From Pseudomonadota bacterium (GTDB lineage Bacteria > Myxococcota_A > UBA9160 > SZUA-336): a stretch of 64,000 nucleotides of DNA. A program made the position numbers and the translations under genes. The DNA lies in NCBI GenBank assembly GCA_021295775.1, contig JAGWBS010000040.1, forward strand, positions 906 through 64,905, read 5' to 3'. This document shows positions 4,893 through 42,347 of the stretch, one piece after another. Positions within the stretch are counted from its first letter, which is position 1. Each line of letters opens with the position of its first letter. The notes beneath the pieces were generated by a model. That model had not been told where the DNA came from. It made no database searches and worked only from the letters and a program-made list of their open reading frames with translations.

Positions 4893-7520
4893 TCACAGCG
4901 TATCGGGCGTCTCCTCGACCTCGTAGCCCTCGATCCGGTCGCCCACCTTCACGTCGTTGTAGTTCTCGATGCCCATGCCGCACTCGAGCGGCGCCGACAC
5001 CTCGCGCGCATCGTCCTTGAAGCGGCGCAGCGATGCGAGCTGTCCGTCGTAAATTCTCACCCCGTCGCGGATCACGCGCACGCGGCTGTTGCGGCGAACC
5101 GTCCCCTCGGTCACCTCACAGCCCGCCACCGTGCCCACGCGCGGTACCACGAACAGCTCCTTGACATTGGCCGAGGCCAGCACCTTCTCCACCCGCCGGG
5201 CGGGGAGCAGGCCCTGCATCATGGCCTCGGCCTCCTGAAGCAGCTCGTAGACGATGTCGTAGCTGCGCAACGGCACTCCGTCGCGCTCGGCCGCCCGCCG
5301 GGCCGCGGGCTCCGGGACAACGTGGAACCCGAAGATCACCGCTTCGGACGCCTGGGCGAGCATCACGTCGCTCTCGTTGATGGACCCGACTCCCGAATGC
5401 AGCACGTTGAGCTTGACGCGCTCGGTGGAGAGTTTCTCGAGCGCCTCCGCGGTCGCCTCGACACTGCCGCGCACGTCCGCCTTGAGCACCACCCGAAGTT
5501 CCCATTTGTCCGCCTGTCCGAGGGCCGCGAAAAGATCTTCGGCGCTGATCTCCGACGCATCGGCGGGTTCGGTCACCGCTTGGCGCTTGCTCTCTTCGAC
5601 GCGGTGTTCCGCCACGCGCTTGGCTTCGCGCTCGTTCTTCATCGAAACCAGTTCGTGGCCGGCCTCCGGGACTCCGTTCAGTCCGATGAGCTGTACGGGC
5701 AACGAAGGGCCGGCCTGCTTGAGGTTCTGACCGCGGTCGTCGGTCAGGGAGCGCGCCCGGCCGTAAACGTTGCCCACGACAACGGCGTCGCCGCGCTTGA
5801 GCACCCCCTCCTGCACCAGAACCGTCGAAACCGGCCCGCGGCCCTTGTCGAGCGACGCCTCGACGACGACCGCGCGGGCTCGTCCCCTGGCCGGCGAGCG
5901 CAGCTCCAGGAGTTCGGCCTGAAGCCCGATCATCTCCAGCAGCTTGTCGAGATTCGTACCCTCGATGGCCGACACGTCGACGCAGATCGTCTCGCCGCCG
6001 AACTCCTCGGCGACCAGTTCGTGCTCCAGCAGGGCCTGCTTGACGCGCTGCGGGTCCGCGTCCGGGCGGTCGATCTTGTTGACCGCCACAATGATGGGCA
6101 CCTCGGCGGCCCGCGCGTGGTTGATGGCTTCGACGGTCTGCGGCATGACCCCGTCGTCCGCCGCCACGACCAGCACCACGATGTCGGTGACCTGGGCGCC
6201 GCGGGCGCGCATCTGGGTGAATGCGGCGTGGCCCGGCGTGTCGATGAAGGTGATCCGCTGGCCACCGGCCTCGACCTGGTAGGCGCCGATGTGCTGGGTG
6301 ATCCCTCCGGCCTCGCCGTCGACGACGCGCGTCTCGCGGATCGCGTCCAGCAGCGACGTCTTGCCGTGATCGACATGGCCCATCACGGTCACCACCGGCG
6401 GACGCGTATCGCCCTCGGCCGAGTCCGTCGGCCCGCGGGTGGCCTCGGCCACGGCGCGCTCGGTATCGGTCTCGACGCGGATCACTTCGAAGCCGTATTC
6501 GGACGCGATCAGGCTCGCGACCTCGGACTCGACCATGCCGCCGCGCTCAAGCTCGACTCCGAGATCCTGCGCCCGGCGCGTGAGTTCCCGGAGCTTGACG
6601 CCCAACTCCGCGGACAGGTCCGCGACCGGGATCGAAGCTCCCAGACGCACCAGCTTGCGGCGCTCGCCGACCATCGACGGGCGCCGACCCGAAGCGCCGC
6701 GGCGGCGCCTCGAATTCAGCCGCGACTGCTGTTCGACCAGCATGCGGCGCTTCTCGAGGTGCGCCTGGACGTTGCCGCGCATCATGCGCGCCATCGTCTC
6801 CTGCTCTTTGAGATTCTGGCCCTGTACGACCTGCTGGCGTCGGTGAAGCTTGCGGGCCGCGGGTCGCCGGTCCGGGGGCTGTCCAGCTCCGCCCCGGTCG
6901 GGCGCGGCAGCCGATCCCGCAGCCGGTTGCGAAGCCTCGGGCAGCGAGGGCAGCGTCTCGGAAGCTCCGGCAGCGGGAGCTGCGGGGGCGCGCTGTTCCG
7001 AATTCAGCAGCGGGTCGTCGACCACCTTGACGGGAGTGGTCATGCGCGGCGCCGCGGCCGAACTCGCCGAGGCCGCGAGCGGAGGCGCTTCGCCGGTCTC
7101 GGGCGGGGCCGGAGAGGGGACGGGCTCGGGCTCCTCGACCACGGGCTCCACCGGCGGCGGAGATTGAGGAGGCTCGGGCGCGATTTCGGGAGTCGACTCC
7201 AGCGGTACAGGAGCCTCGACCTGGAGCGGCGAGGGTTCGGCCTCTTCGAGCGGAGTCGGCGCCGGCGCGGCGGCCGGCCCGTCTTCGACCGCGCGCTTGC
7301 GGCGGCGTCGACGCACCACGGTCCCACCCACGCGCTTGTCCTCGGTGACCACGTCCGAGGCGCGGCCGAAGCGGCGGCGCAGATCGTCCGCCGTCTCCGA
7401 GTCGAGCCCGGACATGGGGCTGCGGATCTCGATTCCGATCTCTCCGGCCTTGGCGATCAACTCGTCGCGCTCTAATCCGAGCTCTTCGGCCAGCTTGTAT
7501 GCCCGGACTTTCACAGCCAT
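4893..7520 (-). CDS. infB: Translation initiation factor IF-2
   Basis: 875 aa. The N-terminus is [32 protein letters not shown], followed by a Pro/Ala-rich linker. The GTPase core reads [20 protein letters not shown]...DTPGHAAF...NKID. Confidence 0.97.
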
Positions 7521-20279: not shown

Positions 20280-20717
20280 ATGTCCGACGACGCGGCGGCC
20301 GCCGGGCCGCTCCCCATCGTCCCTTACCTCAAGCTGCCGGAGGGTGGCGATCCCTACCTGGAGGGCCATCGCTGCGCCGCGTGTGGCGCTTACTTCCTCG
20401 GCCAACGCGACGTCTGCGGCGCCTGCGGCGCGCGCGGCCGGATGGAAGCGGTCGAACTGTCCCGAAACGGCGAACTGCACGCCTATTCGATCACGCACCG
20501 CTCGTTTCCAGGGATCGAGGTGCCCTTCGTGTCCGCGATCGTCGACCTCGACGGCGGCGGAACGATCAAGACCAATCTGATCGGCATCGACCCCGACCCG
20601 GAGAAGATCTCCATGGGCATGAAGGTCGAGGTCGTGTTCCAGATCGCTCCGCGGAAGGACCGCGAGGGCAACGAGTACATGACGTTCGCGGTCCAGCCCG
20701 CGAACCGAGGAGACTAG
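20280..20717 (+). CDS. Zn-ribbon/OB-fold protein (DUF35 family), partner of thiolase-like enzymes
   Basis: ATG 20280, with AGGGGG 7 nt upstream. Translation [53 protein letters not shown]... The four Cys form the zinc ribbon, followed by an OB-fold tail. Confidence 0.85.
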
Positions 20718-22342
20718 TCATGAGCGACGTCTACATCGGCGGGATCGACATGCTCGCCTTCGGCAAGTACCCGGAGCGCAGCGTCGAGAGCCTGGGCGGC
20801 GAGGCCGCTCTCGGGGCGCTCGACGACGCCGGTCTGTCGATCCGCGACGTGCAGGCCCTGTACGCCGGCTCGCTGATGCAGGCGTCGGCCAACCCGGGGC
20901 AGCGCATCCTGAAGGAGATCGGCCAGACCGGCATCCCGGTGGTCAATTGCGCCAATGCCTGCGCCACCGGCGCCACGGCGTTCCGCGAGGGCTGGACCGC
21001 CGTCAAGGCGGGGCTGTACGACGCGGTGCTGGCGGTCGGCGTGGAGAAGCTGGCCGGGGCCGGGATGCTCGGCGGCGGCGGCTCCAAGGGCATCTCCTCC
21101 GAAGGTCTGCTCGGTTCCGATTCGATGCCGTGCGTGTTCGCCGAAGCGGGAATGGAGCACGCCCGCCAATACGGCACCACCTTCGAACAGTTCGCGATGA
21201 TCTCGGTCAAGAACCACCACCATTCGACCATGAACCCCAAGGCGCGTTACCGCATGGAAACGCCGCTGGAAGAGGTCATGAACGCCGAGATGATCTCCTA
21301 TCCCAACACCAAGCTGATGTGCTCGGTCAACGTGGACGGCGCAGCGGCCGCGGTGATCCTGTCGGAGAAGAAGGTCAAGGAGCTGGGACTGTCGAGCCGG
21401 GCGGTCAAGGTCCGGGCCTCGGTCCTGATGACCGACCCGTACACGCCGCGCGATCAGGTGATGCCCGACGTCAACACCTGCACGCGCAACGCGGCCTCGG
21501 CGGCCTGGGAGATGGCGGGCGTGGGCCCGACGGATCTGGACCTGGTCGAACTCCACGACTGCTTCGCGACTGCCGAAGTCCTGCATTACGAGAACCTGGG
21601 CCTGTGCGCCGACGGCGACGCTCCCAAGCTGATCGACGACCGCGACACCTGGCTGGGCGGGCGCATCCCCGTCAACGTCTCGGGCGGCCTGCTTTCCAAG
21701 GGGCATCCGATCGGAGCGACCGGCATCGCCAACCTGTACGAGGTCTCCACGCACCTGCGCGGCGACGCCGGCGAACGGCAGGTCGAGGGAGCACGCCTCG
21801 GCCTGACGCACGTGATCGGCCTGGGCACCTGCTGCGGCATACACGTCCTGGAGGCCCCGAGCAGCTAGCGCCGCCAAGGCGAAGCCCGGAAAGCGGCCGT
21901 CGGGCCCCAGCCACCACCACGCCTGGGCCTCCCTGGCGAGTTGCGCGCAGCGCGGTCGCGATGGCAGTCGCGCCACGGGGGCGAACGCGCGCAGTCGTTC
22001 GTCGAGTTCCGGGTCCGGCCCGGCGCCGTGCACCACGGCTTCGAGCCGCTCGCCCAGGCGCAACGCCGCGTCCGGGGCAAGGCCCGAGACCAGCTCGGTG
22101 AGCACGCTGGCCGCGGCGACCGCGATGCTGCAGCCCTGGGCCCGCGCGCTGCTGGCGTCGATGCGGCCCGCCCGCAGGTTCACCTCGACGCTCACCTCGT
22201 CGCCGCAGACCGGGTTGAGCGCACGGCCCGTCCCGTCGGGCTCGGCTAGGGGCGCGCGGTTCCGGGGGGAGCGGTAATGCTCCAGCACCACGTCCCGGTA
22301 CAGCGCCGCCAGCGGATCGGTCTCGGGGCCGGACTCTGACAT
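20714..22342 (-). CDS. SufU/IscU-like Fe-S cluster scaffold ORF lacking a normal stop. Only about the first 150 codons (about 21890-22342) look genuine.
   Basis: ATG 22342, with GGGAG 6 nt upstream. Translation [32 protein letters not shown]...[15 protein letters not shown]...[16 protein letters not shown]...[12 protein letters not shown]. The frame then continues without a stop for about 390 codons, antisense to the thiolase gene. That sequence is R/H/G/V-rich junk. Confidence 0.55.
20720..21868 (+). CDS. Thiolase-like protein (SCP-x type acetyl-CoA acetyltransferase family)
   Basis: ATG 20720, with GAGGAG upstream. Translation [21 protein letters not shown]...[15 protein letters not shown]...[23 protein letters not shown]... 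Confidence 0.92.
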   Translation: MSDVYIGGIDMLAFGKYPERSVESLGGEAALGALDDAGLSIRDVQALYAGSLMQASANPGQRILKEIGQTGIPVVNCANACATGATAFREGWTAVKAGLYDAVLAVGVEKLAGAGMLGGGGSKGISSEGLLGSDSMPCVFAEAGMEHARQYGTTFEQFAMISVKNHHHSTMNPKARYRMETPLEEVMNAEMISYPNTKLMCSVNVDGAAAAVILSEKKVKELGLSSRAVKVRASVLMTDPYTPRDQVMPDVNTCTRNAASAAWEMAGVGPTDLDLVELHDCFATAEVLHYENLGLCADGDAPKLIDDRDTWLGGRIPVNVSGGLLSKGHPIGATGIANLYEVSTHLRGDAGERQVEGARLGLTHVIGLGTCCGIHVLEAPSS

Positions 22343-22403
22343 TTTCTGCTCCCGCTCCACGGGTCCGGTCGCCGGACCGAGGCGACCCCTCCCGCCGCCA
22401 AGA

Positions 22404-22433
22404 TTGACACTTCGACGGAGCCGTTCCTACCAT
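22404..22433 (+). promoter_or_regulatory. Candidate sigma70 promoter for the cytochrome fusion gene
   Basis: Perfect -35 TTGACA (22404-22409), an 18-nt spacer, then TACCAT (22428-22433). This would leave only a short leader before ATG 22451. Confidence 0.35.
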
Positions 22434-22450
22434 CGCGAGCACGAGGCGCC

Positions 22451-24367
22451 ATGCGATCCAGGTCTGGGGGGGAAAAGCGGATTCGCGGGCGGCGAGTGGC
22501 CCTGTGGGCGCTGGCCATGGCCGCGGGGCTCTCGGCGGGCCTGGGCGCGCTCCGCGCCGACGAGTCGCACGAGCGCCGCGGTCCGCTGCTGCCGCGCTTC
22601 GCGGCGCCGCTGCTGGGAGGCGGCACCGGGGGCAGCGACCAGCTCATCGGTCGCCGGGCGCTGGTCTGGGTGTTCTCTCCCGCGGACCCCGACGGAGAGC
22701 GCGTCGCCGCCATCGTCCGCAGACTGGCCCCCGACGCGCGTGCGGCGAACATCGCGCTTCTGGGAGTCGCGGTCGGCGTCGACTCGACCCAGGCCCAGCG
22801 GGCCGTCGAAGAACGCGGCATCGACTTCCCCGTCGTCCTCGATACGCGGGGAACGGTCGCGGGCAAGCTGCGGGCGCCCCCGCGCCGCTCCAGCCTCTAC
22901 AGCATCGACGCCCAGGGCTTCGTCCTGGGCGGGTTCCGCGGACTGCAGGTCGATCGTCCGGAGTACGACGAGGCTTACGAAGCCGAGGTGCGTCGTCTGC
23001 TGCACCTGACCCGGCACGGTGCGGCGCTGCGTCCGGAACTCGGGCTGCGGCCGGCCGCGCCCGAGTTCCGAGTCCGCGGCCTGGACGGCGGGTTGCTGGA
23101 GAGTTGCGACCTGGAGGGGAAAGTCGGGGTGCTGATGTTCTTCAGCCCGACCTGCCCCCACTGTCACGAGGCCCTGCAGTTCTTCGAGGCGCTGCTCGGG
23201 GAATTGGACACGGACGAACTGGTCTTCGCGCCCGTCAGCGTCAGCGACCGGATCTATGTGATCGAGCAGATGGTCAACGACCTGCGGCTGGAGGTTCCGC
23301 TGTACACCGATCCAGGCGGAAACGCGGCCCGCGACTTCACCCACAGGTTCTCGGTGCCCGACACGATCGTCATCGACCGGGACGGGCGGGTGCTCGCACG
23401 GCACCAGGGCGTCAACCCCCGCATCAAGGCCCTGCTGAGCGTGCAGATTCGCGCGGCGCTGGGCGTGGAGAACCCGATCCGTCTCAGCCGCCGGGGATAC
23501 AGCGGCCAGGAGTTCTGCCAGGCGTGCCACCCCGGCCAGCACTCCTCCTGGGAGCTGACGCGCCACGCTTTCGCCTTCGAGACGCTGGTCGAGCACAACG
23601 TGGACCGCGACCCGGAGTGCCTTCCGTGCCACACCGTGGGCTGGGAGCAGCCGGGCGGCTACAGCCTCGAGAACCAGAGCGAGCACCTGCGGGGCGTCCA
23701 GTGCGAAACCTGCCACGGGCGCGGCGGTCCGCACCAGTCTCCCGACTTCCTGGCCGAAACGGACCTGGAGTCGGTCTGTCTGACCTGCCACACGCCAGAG
23801 CATTCGCTGCGCTTCGTGTTCGCCGAGCGGCTGCCCCTGGTCTCGCATGCGGCCAATTCACGCTTCGCCGAGCTCTCCCTCGAAGAGCGCATCGAGCTGA
23901 TCGAGCGCCGCGACAAGCGCCAGCGCAAGCTGTTCGAAACCGCCGACTACGTGGGTTCCGACGCCTGCGCTTCCTGCCATCCCGCCGAGCACCAGCGCTG
24001 GGGAGCGTCCGCGCACGCGGGCGCGTTCGAAACCCTGGCCCGGCAGGACGCTCAGGGCGATCCGGACTGCCAGGAGTGCCACACCACCGGTTTCGGCCAA
24101 CCGACCGGTTGGCAGCCAGGCGCCTCCGGGCTGCAGGCGGTCGGCTGCGAAAGCTGCCACGGCCCCGGAGCGACCCACGTGGCCGAGGAGGGCCGGCGTC
24201 CGGGCAGCATTCTGCGCCTGACCGAGAAGTGCGACAGTTGCGTCATCCTGCAGATCTGCGGTTCCTGCCACGACGACGCGAACGACCCCGGCTTCGAATT
24301 CGAGCTCGACGCCAAGCTCGACCTGATCCGGCACGGCTTCCGCGACCGCGAGGCCCCCGCGCCATGA
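22451..24367 (+). CDS. Secreted fusion protein: two thioredoxin-fold (TlpA/redoxin-like) domains plus an octahaem c-type cytochrome domain
   Basis: 638 aa with the signal-like N-terminus RRVALWALAMAAGLSAGLGA. The first redoxin-like domain has no CxxC (VWVFSPADPDG). The second has FFSPTCPHCHEAL (CPHC at 23153-23164). The C-terminal third has eight CxxCH motifs: CQACH, CLPCH, CETCH, CLTCH, CASCH, CQECH, CESCH, CGSCH. Confidence 0.85.
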   Translation: MRSRSGGEKRIRGRRVALWALAMAAGLSAGLGALRADESHERRGPLLPRFAAPLLGGGTGGSDQLIGRRALVWVFSPADPDGERVAAIVRRLAPDARAANIALLGVAVGVDSTQAQRAVEERGIDFPVVLDTRGTVAGKLRAPPRRSSLYSIDAQGFVLGGFRGLQVDRPEYDEAYEAEVRRLLHLTRHGAALRPELGLRPAAPEFRVRGLDGGLLESCDLEGKVGVLMFFSPTCPHCHEALQFFEALLGELDTDELVFAPVSVSDRIYVIEQMVNDLRLEVPLYTDPGGNAARDFTHRFSVPDTIVIDRDGRVLARHQGVNPRIKALLSVQIRAALGVENPIRLSRRGYSGQEFCQACHPGQHSSWELTRHAFAFETLVEHNVDRDPECLPCHTVGWEQPGGYSLENQSEHLRGVQCETCHGRGGPHQSPDFLAETDLESVCLTCHTPEHSLRFVFAERLPLVSHAANSRFAELSLEERIELIERRDKRQRKLFETADYVGSDACASCHPAEHQRWGASAHAGAFETLARQDAQGDPDCQECHTTGFGQPTGWQPGASGLQAVGCESCHGPGATHVAEEGRRPGSILRLTEKCDSCVILQICGSCHDDANDPGFEFELDAKLDLIRHGFRDREAPAP

Positions 24368-25176
24368 GCGGGGCCGGCGAGAAGTCTCGAATTCTGGCGC
24401 TGCTTCGACAGGAACTTCTGGACCTGCGGCAGGAAGGGCTCGACTACCTCGGCCCCCGGCCGCTCCGCCCGCCCCGCGAACAGGCCCAGCCCGAACGCCG
24501 CGCCACGGGTGGGAAGCCGGCTTCGGCCGTTCGCGCGGCGGGTTCCGGGGGCTGGCGTCCGCGCGTCCCCCCGCTGGAGATGCCCCCGCTCGAAGGCGAT
24601 GCGCAGGTGAAAGGCCAGCGGCTGGAGGAGATTCGGCACGACCTTGGGGACTGCAGGCGCTGCGAGCTGTGCGAGCGGCGCCAGACGATCGTCTTCGGCG
24701 AGGGCAATCCCGACGCGCCGGTGGTTTTCGTCGGCGAAGGCCCCGGAGCCGACGAAGACCGTTCCGGGCGCCCGTTCGTGGGTCGCGCCGGCGAACTCTT
24801 GTCCAAGATGATCGCCTCGGTCGGCTGGCGTCGCGAAGACGTCTACATCTGCAACATCGTCAAGTGTCGCCCGCCCGGAAACCGCGATCCGAAGCTCGAA
24901 GAAGTTGCCATGTGCCAGCCGTTCCTGGAGCGCCAGATCGAGGCGATCGCGCCGCTGGCGATCGTGGCCCTGGGCAAGCCGGCCATCTCCACGCTCATGG
25001 GCCGGCCGATTCCGATCACCAAGCTGCGCGGGCAGTGGCAGGAATGGCGGGGTTATCCCGTGATGCCCACCTTCCACCCCGCTTACCTTCTGCGCAACTA
25101 CACCCGCGAGGCCCGGCAGGCCGTCTGGGACGATCTGAAGGCCGCGCGCGCCCGGGTCGAAGAAGCCGGGCGTTGA
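24364..25176 (+). CDS. Uracil-DNA glycosylase, family 4
   Basis: ATG 24364 overlaps the cytochrome TGA (ATGA). Translation ...DCRRCELCERRQTIVFGEGNPDAPVVFVGEGPGADEDRSGRPFVGRAG...ICNIVKCRPPGNR...TFHPAYLLR. Confidence 0.9.
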   Translation: MSGAGEKSRILALLRQELLDLRQEGLDYLGPRPLRPPREQAQPERRATGGKPASAVRAAGSGGWRPRVPPLEMPPLEGDAQVKGQRLEEIRHDLGDCRRCELCERRQTIVFGEGNPDAPVVFVGEGPGADEDRSGRPFVGRAGELLSKMIASVGWRREDVYICNIVKCRPPGNRDPKLEEVAMCQPFLERQIEAIAPLAIVALGKPAISTLMGRPIPITKLRGQWQEWRGYPVMPTFHPAYLLRNYTREARQAVWDDLKAARARVEEAGR

Positions 25177-27649: not shown

Positions 27650-27833
27650 CGTCGACCCTCCTGAACCCGATCGCTGGATCAGGCCCATTGGAACACCTCG
27701 GCCCCGCTCCCACCACAGCGAAGGGCCGGCGGCGAGGGCCTGCCGGCGCAGCGGACCCTTGACAAGAGAGCGATACGCAGGAACATCCGCCGAACGCCAC
27801 CCCTGCCCGCCGGAGGCTCTCCCCATGTCCAGT

Positions 27834-28577
27834 ATTCCGACTTCCCCCGTCCGACTCCTGCTCGCGCTCGCGATCCTCGCGACCGCCCCGGCCTGCCAGC
27901 CGGGCGCAGACGCCGCCGAGGCGGACGAACTCCGCCAGGAGATGAAGGCCCTGCGCGGGGAGATCGAGCAACTCAACGAGAACTTCCGGCGCGCTTTCGG
28001 CACGCGGCCGGCGGCCGAGGCGGCGGAGCCGCCGCGCGAGGACTTCGACCGCGTCTACTCCATCGATCTGGCGGGATCGCCCGTCCTGGGCGACCCCGAC
28101 GCGCCCGTGGCGATCGTGGAGTATTCCGACTTCCAGTGCCCCTACTGTGCGCGCCTGCAGCCACTGCTCGAAGAAGTCCTCCAGAAATACCCACGGCAGG
28201 TCAAGCTGGTCTTCAAGCACTTCCCGCTCAGCTTCCACCGAAATGCGCGCCCCGCCGCGCAGGCGTCGCTCGCGGCCGGCGAGCAGGGAAAGTTCTGGGA
28301 ACTGCACGATCTGCTTTTCGAAAACCAGAAGGCTCTGGACCCGCCCCAGATCGAGCGCTACGCCGAGCAGGTCGGCCTGGACATCGAGCGTTTCAGGCGC
28401 GATCTGGCCGACAACCGGGCGGCCTACGACGAGCGCATCGAAGCCGACCTGGCGCAGGGCCAGGGCGTGGACGTGCGCGGTACCCCGACGGTTTACATCG
28501 CGGGCCGCAAGCTGCGCGACCGATCGGTCGCCGGCATGAGCGCGCTGGTCGAGAGGGCGTTGAGCGAGAGCGGCTGA
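27834..28577 (+). CDS. DsbA-family thiol:disulfide oxidoreductase, probable lipoprotein
   Basis: ATG 27834: MSSIPTSPVRLLLALAILATAPAC has a lipobox-like Cys. A coiled-coil linker follows, then VAIVEYSDFQCPYCARL (CPYC) and ...GTPTVYIAGR. Confidence 0.88.
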   Translation: MPTSPVRLLLALAILATAPACQPGADAAEADELRQEMKALRGEIEQLNENFRRAFGTRPAAEAAEPPREDFDRVYSIDLAGSPVLGDPDAPVAIVEYSDFQCPYCARLQPLLEEVLQKYPRQVKLVFKHFPLSFHRNARPAAQASLAAGEQGKFWELHDLLFENQKALDPPQIERYAEQVGLDIERFRRDLADNRAAYDERIEADLAQGQGVDVRGTPTVYIAGRKLRDRSVAGMSALVERALSESG

Positions 28578-40423: not shown

Positions 40424-41502
40424 GCCGCGAACTGATCGAGGGCTCCGCCGCCATCGCGGAAGCCGCCATCGCCGCGGGCTGCCGCTTTTTCGCCGGCTAC
40501 CCGATGACGCCCTTCACCGAGGTGCTGGAGCACTTCGCCAGGCGTCTGCCCGAGGTCGGCGGCGTCTGCATCAACGCGGAGAGCGAGCTGGAGGCGGTCG
40601 GGATGGCCTGGGGGGCCGTCTCCACCGGCGCGCGGGCGGCGACCGGTTCGACCGGCCAGGGCCTGTCGCTGATGCAGGAGTCGTTCTCGGAGATCACGCG
40701 CGCGGAGCTGCCGCTGGTGATCGTCAACATGGCGCGCGGCCAGGGCGACTACTACCAGTCGACGCGCGGCGGCGGGCACGGCGACTACCGTCACATCGTG
40801 CTGGCGCCGATCGACATCCACGAGGCGGTCGAGCTGACCCAGCTTGCGTTCCACCTCGCCGACGCCTGGCGCAACCCTGTGCTGATCTACGGCGACTATC
40901 TGCTGGCGCACACTTACGAGGCCGTCGACATCCGCGCGCTCGACTTCGGCGAGCTGCCGGCCAAGGACTGGGCCGTCGACGGCTCTTTGGGCGGAACCGG
41001 ACACTCCCGCAGCGTCAATCCGCTGGGGTTCCGCAAGGGCGAGACGGGCGTCGACCCGGACTCGATGTGGAAGCGGCTGCAGGCCAAGCACGACGCGATC
41101 GAACGCGAAGAGGCGCGCTGCGAGACGGAGTTCGTCGACGACGCCGAGACGGTCGTCGTGGCCTTCGGCTCGCTGGCCAAGTTCGCCCGCTACGCCGTCC
41201 GCGAGCTGCGCGGCGAGGGAGTGCGCGTGGGCTACGTGCGGCCCATCACGCTCTGGCCGTTCCCCTCGCAAGCCCTGGCGAGCGCCTGCGACGGAGCCGC
41301 CAACGTCGCCGTGCTGGAGCAGAACGCCGGCCAGATGATCGACGACGTGCGGCTGGCATTGCTGGGCCGCGCGCCGGTCGTCGCGATCGGGGAGATCTCG
41401 ACCGATCCGGCCGGATTCGGCGTCGGCCCCCTGCTCGACCCCGAGCGGGTGCGCGGGCGCATCGAAGCGGTGCTGGAAGCGCCGCCAGGAGGACCCCGGT
41501 GA
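40420..41502 (+). CDS. 2-oxoacid:ferredoxin oxidoreductase, alpha subunit
   Basis: GTG 40420 overlaps the delta-subunit TGA. Translation VSRELIEGSAAIAEAAIAAGCRFFAGYPMTPFTEVLEH... Confidence 0.9.
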   Translation: MSRELIEGSAAIAEAAIAAGCRFFAGYPMTPFTEVLEHFARRLPEVGGVCINAESELEAVGMAWGAVSTGARAATGSTGQGLSLMQESFSEITRAELPLVIVNMARGQGDYYQSTRGGGHGDYRHIVLAPIDIHEAVELTQLAFHLADAWRNPVLIYGDYLLAHTYEAVDIRALDFGELPAKDWAVDGSLGGTGHSRSVNPLGFRKGETGVDPDSMWKRLQAKHDAIEREEARCETEFVDDAETVVVAFGSLAKFARYAVRELRGEGVRVGYVRPITLWPFPSQALASACDGAANVAVLEQNAGQMIDDVRLALLGRAPVVAIGEISTDPAGFGVGPLLDPERVRGRIEAVLEAPPGGPR

Positions 41503-42347
41503 GCCGACTCCCGGTTCTGGACACCGACCGCCCGCCGCAGGCCTCGGCGGTCAAGATCGCGCGCGACAAGCCGGATCTGCTGCTGACCGAGCGCCACGAT
41601 CTCTGCCCGGGCTGCGGCGAGCCCCTGGCCATGCGCGTGCTGCTCGAGGCGATCGAAGAGCTGGACGCGAGCCGAATGGCGATCGGCGTGGTCGGCATCG
41701 GCTGCTACACCGCCTTCAGTCCGACCATGGACGTGGACAGCATCCAGGCGCTGCACGGTCGAGCGCCCTCGGTGGCGACCGGCGCCAAGCGCATGCGGCC
41801 GGAGTCGCTGGTGTTCACGCTCCAGGGCGATGGGGACATGGTCAACGAGGGCCTGCAGGAGGTCATCCACACCGCCGCGCGGGGCGAGTCCGTGACCTGC
41901 GTGCTGCTCAACAACGGCGTGTTCGGCGAGACCGGCGGCCACATGACCGCGACCACGGTGCTCGGGCAGCGCACCAAGAACTCGCTCGACGGCCGCGACG
42001 CCGCCTACCACGGCCACCCGATCCTGATCGGCGACCTGCTCGCCCAGCTCGGCGGAACCGCCTACGCGGCGCGCGGCGCGGTGGACGACGCCGCCGGCGT
42101 CGCGCGCGCCAAGCGCATGCTGCGGCGCGCCTTCCAGACCCAGCTCCGAGGCGAGGGCTTCTCCTTCGTCGAGATCCTGACCATGTGTCCCACCGGCTGG
42201 TTCATCCCCACGCCCGACGGCCCCGGCTACCTCGACGAGGTGATGGGCACGGTGCACGTGACCGGAGAGCTCAAGGCCGGCGGCAAGCTGACGACCACGG
42301 CCGAACTGATCGCGCGCCGCGGGGGCCGCGAAGCGCCGACCGCGTAG
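41499..42347 (+). CDS. 2-oxoacid:ferredoxin oxidoreductase, beta subunit (TPP-binding)
   Basis: GTG 41499 overlaps the alpha-subunit TGA. Translation ...HDLCPGCGEPLAMRVLLEAI...TLQGDGDMVNEGLQEVIHTAARGESVTCVLLNNGVFGETGGH... Confidence 0.9.
   Translation: MSRLPVLDTDRPPQASAVKIARDKPDLLLTERHDLCPGCGEPLAMRVLLEAIEELDASRMAIGVVGIGCYTAFSPTMDVDSIQALHGRAPSVATGAKRMRPESLVFTLQGDGDMVNEGLQEVIHTAARGESVTCVLLNNGVFGETGGHMTATTVLGQRTKNSLDGRDAAYHGHPILIGDLLAQLGGTAYAARGAVDDAAGVARAKRMLRRAFQTQLRGEGFSFVEILTMCPTGWFIPTPDGPGYLDEVMGTVHVTGELKAGGKLTTTAELIARRGGREAPTA

Follow-up and report, generated by a model that had tools for sequence, protein, structure and literature searches.

Redoxins of the TlpA/ResA/CcmG(DsbE) group, such as B. 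subtilis ResA (PDB 1su9/1st9), C. tepidum 3gl3 and G. metallireducens 3kcm, are single-domain proteins that act in trans on apocytochromes, Sco or CoxB and are recycled by CcdA/DsbD. Their active-site dipeptides are characteristic, with CEPC in ResA and CPTC or CPSC in CcmG. DsbA has CPHC, and the DsbA-DsbB pair hands the electrons of disulfide formation to the respiratory chain; in the Mia40-Erv1 system, Erv1 passes electrons to cytochrome c. To our knowledge, all known redox routes for the cysteines of the bacterial envelope run through a membrane quinone enzyme (DsbB/VKOR) or on electrons from cytoplasmic thioredoxin (DsbD/CcdA). Thioredoxin-fold redox cysteines and a c-type cytochrome reportedly share one polypeptide in the Sco-cytochrome c fusions (Pseudomonas putida; Banci and co-workers), in which the haem is said to have been proposed to trade electrons with the Cys/metal site. 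Here, we describe a fusion gene from a Pseudomonadota bacterium, found on contig JAGWBS010000040.1 of assembly GCA_021295775.1. We analysed positions 906 to 64,905 of this contig, a stretch of 64,000 nucleotides hereafter called the window, and all coordinates are counted from its first letter. On the + strand, the open reading frame (ORF) at 22451..24367 is a complete coding sequence for 638 amino acids. According to the ORF list, Pfam and a structural model, it consists of a signal peptide, a degenerate redoxin (redoxin-0, called domain 1 below), an active redoxin (domain 2) and two tetrahaem c554-like modules; all features of this gene lie on the + strand. While Sco binds copper at a CxxxC and a His and has just one haem domain, of class I, this fusion has a TlpA-like CxxC and eight predicted c554-type haems. 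We see about an even chance that the fusion is an exported thiol:disulfide oxidoreductase with a built-in haem redox partner.

Two Pfam redoxin families matched the protein well above their cut-offs, AhpC-TSA (PF00578) over two stretches (E 3.5e-21; 75.9 bits against 26) and Redoxin (PF08534; E 2.3e-14; 53.9 bits against 26.6). Pfam, PDB profiles and Foldseek placed redoxin domain 2 (residues ~197-340; 23039..23470) with the TlpA/ResA/DsbE-like proteins. The profile matches reached E ~1e-19 for 3kcm and 3c71, and Foldseek gave TM(target) values of 0.89-0.90 with a root-mean-square deviation of 1.7 A to 3gl3 and 1su9. The domain thus has the common fold of the TlpA/ResA/CcmG(DsbE) group (TM ~0.9), and shares with it a CxxC at the N-terminus of helix alpha1, a cis-Pro loop and a predicted extracytoplasmic location. 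The active site, C235-P-H-C238-H239 (23153..23167), was located from the alignment and the model at the N-terminus of helix 236-252. Conservation was counted over an alignment of 99 homologues with identities down to ~25%. In this alignment, C235 and C238 were invariant (99/99), as was the cis-Pro loop proline P303 (VPDT; 23357..23359), and H237 and P236 were found in 92/99 and 89/99, respectively. Unlike the TlpA/ResA/CcmG(DsbE) proteins, the fusion has CPHC, a preceding dead copy of the redoxin and a covalently joined chain of eight predicted haems. The CPHC dipeptide, which differs from the ResA and CcmG types, is the sole feature shared with DsbA; Pfam DSBA and Thioredoxin_4 gave no match in the fusion protein at E<=1. 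Sites of the CPHC type are rather oxidising: natural CPHC proteins have potentials of -32 to -124 mV, and CPHC placed in a low-potential thioredoxin raised its potential by 66 mV (PMC4395160). With the following H239, the motif reads CPHCH and is formally a ninth CxxCH. H239 was present in 70/99 sequences and in only 11/39 of the diverse members, being kept only in the close clade, and E. coli DsbC (1eej) has CGYCH, likewise a CxxCH, in a haem-free dithiol active site. We therefore read CPHCH as a dithiol/disulfide site and judged a ninth haem site unlikely.

Redoxin domain 1 (residues ~45-185; 22583..23005) has a degenerate thioredoxin fold, as indicated by the second AhpC-TSA stretch, PDB profiles and the model. 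Its profile matches, at residues 41-169, show a weak likeness to Prx/Bcp (E 5.6e-5). With redoxin 2 it shares 22% identity (E 8e-5) and the order of secondary-structure elements, and both domains were modelled with a predicted local distance difference test score (pLDDT) above 90. The segment VWVFSPADPDG (residues 72-82) holds no Cys, the domain has neither CxxC nor cis-Pro, and 76/82 homologues have no Cys in it at all. Redoxin 1 thus appears, from its sequence, to be a long-dead domain that has been kept in the family.

The C-terminal 294 residues carry eight CxxCH motifs, starting at C356, C390, C418, C443, C506, C540, C566 and C603 (nt 23516-24271), and matched Pfam Cytochrome_C554 (PF13435) over two stretches (E 9e-27; 94.3 bits against a cut-off of 20.8). 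Seven of the motifs were invariant (99/99) and the eighth was conserved in at least 90% of the sequences. They are arranged in two tetrahaem modules that are 33% identical (E 6e-23) and represent a tandem duplication. Pfam and the alignment defined module 1 (23483..23935), with CxxCH at nt 23516-23530, 23618-23632, 23702-23716 and 23777-23791; its duplicate, module 2 (23936..24364), has CxxCH at nt 23966-23980, 24068-24082, 24146-24160 and 24257-24271. The closest known structures of the unit were cytochrome c554 (1bvb; E 5e-11, in an alignment that covers haem motifs 1-3) and the OcwA-type 6i5b (E 2.5e-14). The fusion has in common with Nitrosomonas cytochrome c554 (1bvb/1ft5) and the nonahaem 6i5b the order and spacing of the motifs, the 'GCESCHGPG' core and PF13435. 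In contrast to cytochrome c554, its module is duplicated in tandem, carries a CxxC insertion before the last haem of module 2 and is fused to redoxins; the c554 equivalog model NF043010 scored 81.8 bits, below its threshold of 400.

The insertion that is specific to module 2 brings two extra cysteines, C594-D-S-C597 (24230..24241, from the module alignment), which stand 5 residues before the haem-8 motif C603. It reads 'KCDSCVILQI' and is located at the start of helix 595-603, the helix limits being those of the model. C597 was invariant (99/99) and C594 was found in 92/99. C594xxC597 is not a degenerate fourth haem motif, since the module alignment pairs CGSCH with CLTCH and leaves C594xxC597 in an insertion. 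Module 1 offers four conserved candidates for distal His ligands (H372, H428, H451 and H466), while module 2 has only three, H522, H576 and H628, for its four haems; in the module 2 column that matches H451, N was found 78 times, W 12 times and H once.

The redoxins and the haem modules seem to be held together. AlphaFold2 run with the 99-sequence alignment gave a model with a pLDDT of 92.4 and a predicted template modelling score (pTM) of 0.87, linker included; with 23 sequences, the redoxins were well modelled and the cytochrome half had a pLDDT <50. The linker between redoxin and cytochrome is conserved at L337, G338, N341, P342, L345, Y350, S351 and G352. These scores and this linker suggest that the domains form a single compact body with a fixed arrangement and are not strung loosely like beads. 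When Foldseek was run against the PDB, no entry spanned more than one domain, and the TM normalised to the query was at most 0.21. Moreover, because the CxxC, the cis-Pro and seven CxxCH are all found in 99/99 sequences, the catalytic dithiol and the haem chain appear to have been selected together.

The fusion is widespread. A word-indexed protein search matched 184 proteins, of which at least 120 were full length (~630 aa), 47-62% identical and alike in their Pfam matches. Their sources are assemblies of NCBI, JGI, ENA and Logan, for the most part metagenome-assembled genomes (MAGs) of Myxococcota, and their names are all generic: 'redoxin domain-containing protein', 'multiheme c-type cytochrome' or, in JGI, 'peroxiredoxin'. 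HMMER, run exhaustively over 50%-identity representatives, gave 109 clusters at E<1e-30, including full-length relatives down to ~30% identity and others of ~470 aa with one redoxin and the octahaem part. Among the GTDB species representatives, ~20 have the full-length fusion, every one a MAG, assigned to Myxococcota or 'Deltaproteobacteria', Binatia and UBA10199, with some labelled Spirochaetaceae. One of these is a closed 5.8-Mb MAG chromosome; other homologues are on contigs of 0.2-1.3 Mb. Overall, clustering at 90% identity divides the family into ~190 groups; their habitats are soils, sediments and oxygen-minimum-zone waters, and all belong to uncultured lineages. Redoxins and c554 modules were found joined in at least three architectures: a degenerate redoxin, a redoxin and 8 haems; a redoxin and 8 haems (~470 aa); and a tandem redoxin with 4 haems. 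The original prediction, which a model had made from the letters and the ORF list alone, had allowed for an assembly chimera and had proposed a survey of the domain architecture. The survey brought out a conserved family rather than a one-off. A chimera or an annotation artefact is ruled out by the 184-190 collinear homologues of ~630 aa in independent assemblies, one of them a closed chromosome; the conserved linker, the uniform GC content (even along the gene, at 0.68-0.75) and the pLDDT of 94-97 at the junction also speak against a chimera, for which nothing was found and to which we give practically no credence. The other elements of that prediction were recovered as well: the single 638-aa ORF at 22451-24367 with a signal-like N-terminus (see below), two domains with a thioredoxin fold in the AlphaFold2 model and in the domain searches, the first without CxxC at VWVFSPADPDG and the second with CPHC at 23153-23164, eight CxxCH, which had been placed at ~23515-24271, and a divergent SufU-like neighbour.

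Each of the parts, namely thioredoxin-fold/cytochrome c fusions (Sco-cytochrome c), c554-like modules and TlpA-like redoxins, is already known separately. What is uncharacterised is the joining of a TlpA-like CPHC redoxin, its dead twin and an octahaem chain in which one further Cys is invariant, and full-text searches of a literature library found no paper on a redoxin-multihaem fusion. The c554-like module is also fused to other catalytic domains, including the UshA-like PCGC/PCGU thiol/selenol proteins (NF041198). This NCBIfam model (UshA-like PCGU) was the best NCBIfam match of the C-terminal tetrahaem module, with 201.7 bits against a cut-off of 275; the match covers only model positions 402-518 of 519, and the PCGU/PCGC motif is absent from the fusion protein. 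As in our fusion, a c554-like tetrahaem module is joined in these (seleno)proteins to a domain whose redox motif contains Cys or Sec (PCGC/PCGU); they differ by their UshA-like N-terminal domain and by having four haems only. In cultured Myxococcus, the only relative was such a UshA-like PCGC protein with one tetrahaem module. In Myxococcus sp. CA023 (locus L050, 5017-6579) and at locus L079 (5101-6639), we observed a PCGC lipoprotein with a single c554-like tetrahaem module. This lipoprotein is the second example of the haem module being linked to a Cys/Sec motif, and its host is accessible to genetic work.

Since redoxin and haems are fused recurrently and conserved jointly, it is simplest to assume that the CxxC draws its electrons from the haems or delivers them there. 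What follows on haem occupancy, on electron transfer to and from the CxxC, on C597 and on substrate and direction is inferred. The TlpA-like domain would exchange disulfides with its substrate through C235/C238, the substrate being probably cysteine pairs of envelope proteins. Two electrons would then move between the CPHC dithiol and the eight c-type haems, which would provide the link to the respiratory electron-transfer chain. The fusion would replace the DsbD/CcdA route if it works reductively and the DsbB/quinone route if it works oxidatively. By analogy with the b domains of protein disulfide isomerase (PDI), the Cys-less redoxin 1 is probably a scaffold or a substrate-binding domain. 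C597, usually with C594, would be the best candidate for the conversion between one-electron and two-electron steps, either as a relay dithiol with C594 at the helix N-terminus or as a Cys ligand to the module 2 haem that has no conserved distal His. Chemistry on S-S bonds at His/Cys-ligated haems is known from MccSep, TsdA and SoxAX (PMC13510729). The fusion resembles these enzymes in its haem-only cofactors, in an invariant non-motif Cys near a haem motif and in one haem without a conserved distal His, while they have no thioredoxin-fold domain, and Cys ligation in the fusion is purely hypothetical. It differs also from DsbA-DsbB and Mia40-Erv1, as it has no DsbA helical insertion, no quinone-binding membrane partner and no flavin, and its acceptor or donor is fused to it. 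Because CPHC is a DsbA-type, high-potential dipeptide and the path would be downhill, we lean slightly towards an oxidative direction, from thiols through CPHC and haems to an acceptor; a reductive direction, with electrons from low-potential bis-His haems, is equally conceivable. In its most specific form, the proposal is a PDI-like envelope relay free of flavin, quinone and iron-sulfur clusters, in which the respiratory chain recycles CPHC via eight c-haems and C597 (with C594), beside haem 8 or ligating it, makes the conversion. If so, these uncultured bacteria would have a third route for envelope thiols and disulfides, beside DsbB/VKOR and DsbD/CcdA. We regard this version as possible and rather doubtful.

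Several observations weigh against an oxidoreductase wired to haems. None of the matches is a characterised homologue, and we know of no direct precedent for a thioredoxin-fold disulfide that is coupled to one-electron carriers by haems only. The signature C-x2-C-x5-CxxCH is also found before the last haem of the redoxin-free octa-/decahaems P0205, P0194 and P0181, and is absent from one redoxin-tetrahaem fusion, P0226; a strict link between this signature and the redoxin is thereby ruled out, and C597 may belong to the cytochrome itself and not serve as a relay to the redoxin. In addition, the neighbourhood in the close clade is housekeeping synteny of the lineage, without operon logic and with no functional weight for the SufU gene, and the neighbours of distant members are unrelated (serS, flhB, rsgA, a murein endopeptidase and a helicase) and supply no partner. 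The context consequently speaks for no function, nor against any.

The original prediction had offered two functional readings, a direct electron wire and a module for maturation or repair. The electron wire has gained support from the invariant CxxC and cis-Pro, the conserved linker, the pTM and the recurring fusions. In the maturation reading, the redoxin would keep the sixteen CxxCH cysteines of its own polypeptide reduced after Sec export and would have no later role. It draws on the fact that redoxin 2 finds its best sequence and fold matches in ResA, DsbE-like and TlpA-like proteins, and an N-terminal redoxin would emerge and fold ahead of the haem motifs. However, the ResA model NF002854 (NCBIfam) reached only 45.7 of the required 170 bits, the NCBIfam matches at E<=1 included no CcmG/DsbE model, and CPHC is DsbA-like and oxidising, not CEPC or CPTC. 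A single CxxC would face eight disulfides and need an external reductant, so that the fusion would give no autonomy, and octahaems of this type that stand alone need no fused redoxin for their maturation. Neither ccm nor resBC nor ccdA genes were found nearby (64-kb window, 4 syntenic and 5 distant loci), and the fusion is the only CxxCH-rich ORF within the 64-kb window. In a domain used once, neither a conserved linker nor a fixed arrangement that can be modelled with confidence would be expected to persist. This reading is thus weakened, and we hold it to be unlikely.

The invariant C597 beside haem 8 and the distal His lacking in module 2 could also belong to a haem-driven reductase of a small S/Se compound (polysulfide, organic disulfide, tetrathionate or selenite), with a catalytic haem next to C594/C597 and the redoxin as a substrate carrier or sulfur-transfer domain. 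MccSep does reduce polysulfide at a His/Cys haem, and the chemistry of TsdA and SoxAX is kindred (PMC13510729); the presence of the C-x2-C-x5-CxxCH signature in stand-alone octahaems would fit such an enzyme too. Yet the match to MccSep was marginal and local (E 0.0037, residues 489-531), as was that to MccA, with no homology at the catalytic site. The loci examined showed no respiratory operon, no quinol dehydrogenase and no sulfur-transfer genes, and the gene is single-copy in a syntenic housekeeping region, apparently co-transcribed with a uracil-DNA glycosylase (UDG) gene. A reductase of this kind seems improbable to us. The original prediction had also considered a peroxide substrate, and JGI calls many homologues 'peroxiredoxin'; in a thiol peroxidase, a Cys would reduce peroxide and the haems would recycle it. 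AhpC-TSA is indeed the top Pfam redoxin match, but PF00578 takes in TlpA-like redoxins too, and the top structure and profile matches of the active domain were ResA, DsbE and TlpA, not peroxiredoxins. The site ('SPTCPHC') stands at the start of a helix and is a CxxC of the thioredoxin type, and the peroxidatic PxxxT/SxxC motif was found in neither domain: C235 stands in the context F-F-S-P-T-C-P-H-C, with Pro at -2 and Thr at -1, and domain 1 is Cys-free. The peroxide option is thus unsupported, and we consider it most improbable.

If the fusion is a thiol:disulfide oxidoreductase with a haem partner, the thiol-disulfide balance of the envelope would be coupled straight to respiration, and the few haem-only enzymes acting on S-S bonds (TsdA, SoxAX and MccSep) would be joined by one with a thioredoxin-fold partner. 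If it is a self-maturation module instead, the finding is modest. The names now given to the family, such as 'peroxiredoxin', are generic or misleading.

The start of the gene and its export signal could be defined from the sequence. A sigma-70-like promoter match, TTGACA-18 nt-TACCAT (22404..22433), agrees with the consensus at 10/12 positions and lies 18 nt upstream of the ATG at 22451; 0.0 such sites were expected in 50 shuffles, and it is a consensus match only. GAGG, which is Shine-Dalgarno-like, was read directly at 22443..22446, 4 nt ahead of this ATG. Together, these elements support ATG 22451 as the start. ENA calls the same protein at 638 aa, while the NCBI record of the identical protein, MCE2391814.1, has 623 aa, as its start is placed 15 codons downstream and the n-region would thereby be lost. 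The predicted signal peptide covers residues 1 to ~36 (22451..22558), with 7 K/R in its n-region, an h-region at 20-34 and an AxA-like 'LRA|DE', where cleavage would occur. The N-termini of all homologues are signal-like too, of the signal peptidase I type or, in many, with a lipobox (L-x-A-C). These sequence features bear out the signal-like N-terminus of the original prediction, and the fusion protein is predicted to be exported, either soluble in the periplasm or tethered to the membrane.

On the - strand, the divergent neighbour (21900..22342) is a SufU/NifU_N-like gene (Pfam NifU_N, E 2.5e-18), 59% identical to its syntenic orthologue. Its ORF (20714-22360) is orthologue-like up to residue ~141 and has no stop where the orthologues end (142-151 aa). 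It reads on for ~400 codons, antisense across the entire thiolase gene, and a stop in another frame lies ~20 codons on; a frameshift, an assembly indel or a true loss of the stop at 21880-21930 would explain this. Downstream, the UDG-superfamily gene (24364..25176, + strand) overlaps the fusion stop with its start, by 4 bp as ATGA (24364-24367). The same overlap was observed in two relatives (loci L003 and L005). An exported cytochrome and a cytoplasmic DNA-repair gene are thus apparently co-transcribed and perhaps translationally coupled, and the UDG gene is a neighbour only, outside the fusion system. The gene order of the close clade, ruvCAB, yebC, (dnaKJ), OB-fold, thiolase, NifU_N, (XdhC), fusion, UDG, ceramidase, aroE and DsbA-like, extends over >20 kb. 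The XdhC/CoxI-family gene between the NifU_N and fusion genes was seen in loci L001 (9028-9885) and L005 (9031-9903) and is absent from the window and L003. The DsbA-like gene (27816-28577, + strand; Pfam Thioredoxin_4/DSBA, CPYC) lies ~3.5 kb downstream of the fusion and keeps this position in L001 and L003. Its placement is probably mere synteny; with it, the organism also owns a conventional disulfide oxidase.

In two loci with the short form, which has a single redoxin and the octahaem part, a 791-aa ORF without a Pfam match was found directly upstream of the fusion (L026, 3518-5893; L025, 3389-5764). In L026, this ORF ends at 5893 and overlaps the start of the fusion gene at 5890, and its product is a possible partner of the short form. 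Finally, an Rfam scan of the 64 kb gave no family at gathering score, and a single tRNA-Ser(GGA) was found at 41442-41536 on the + strand.

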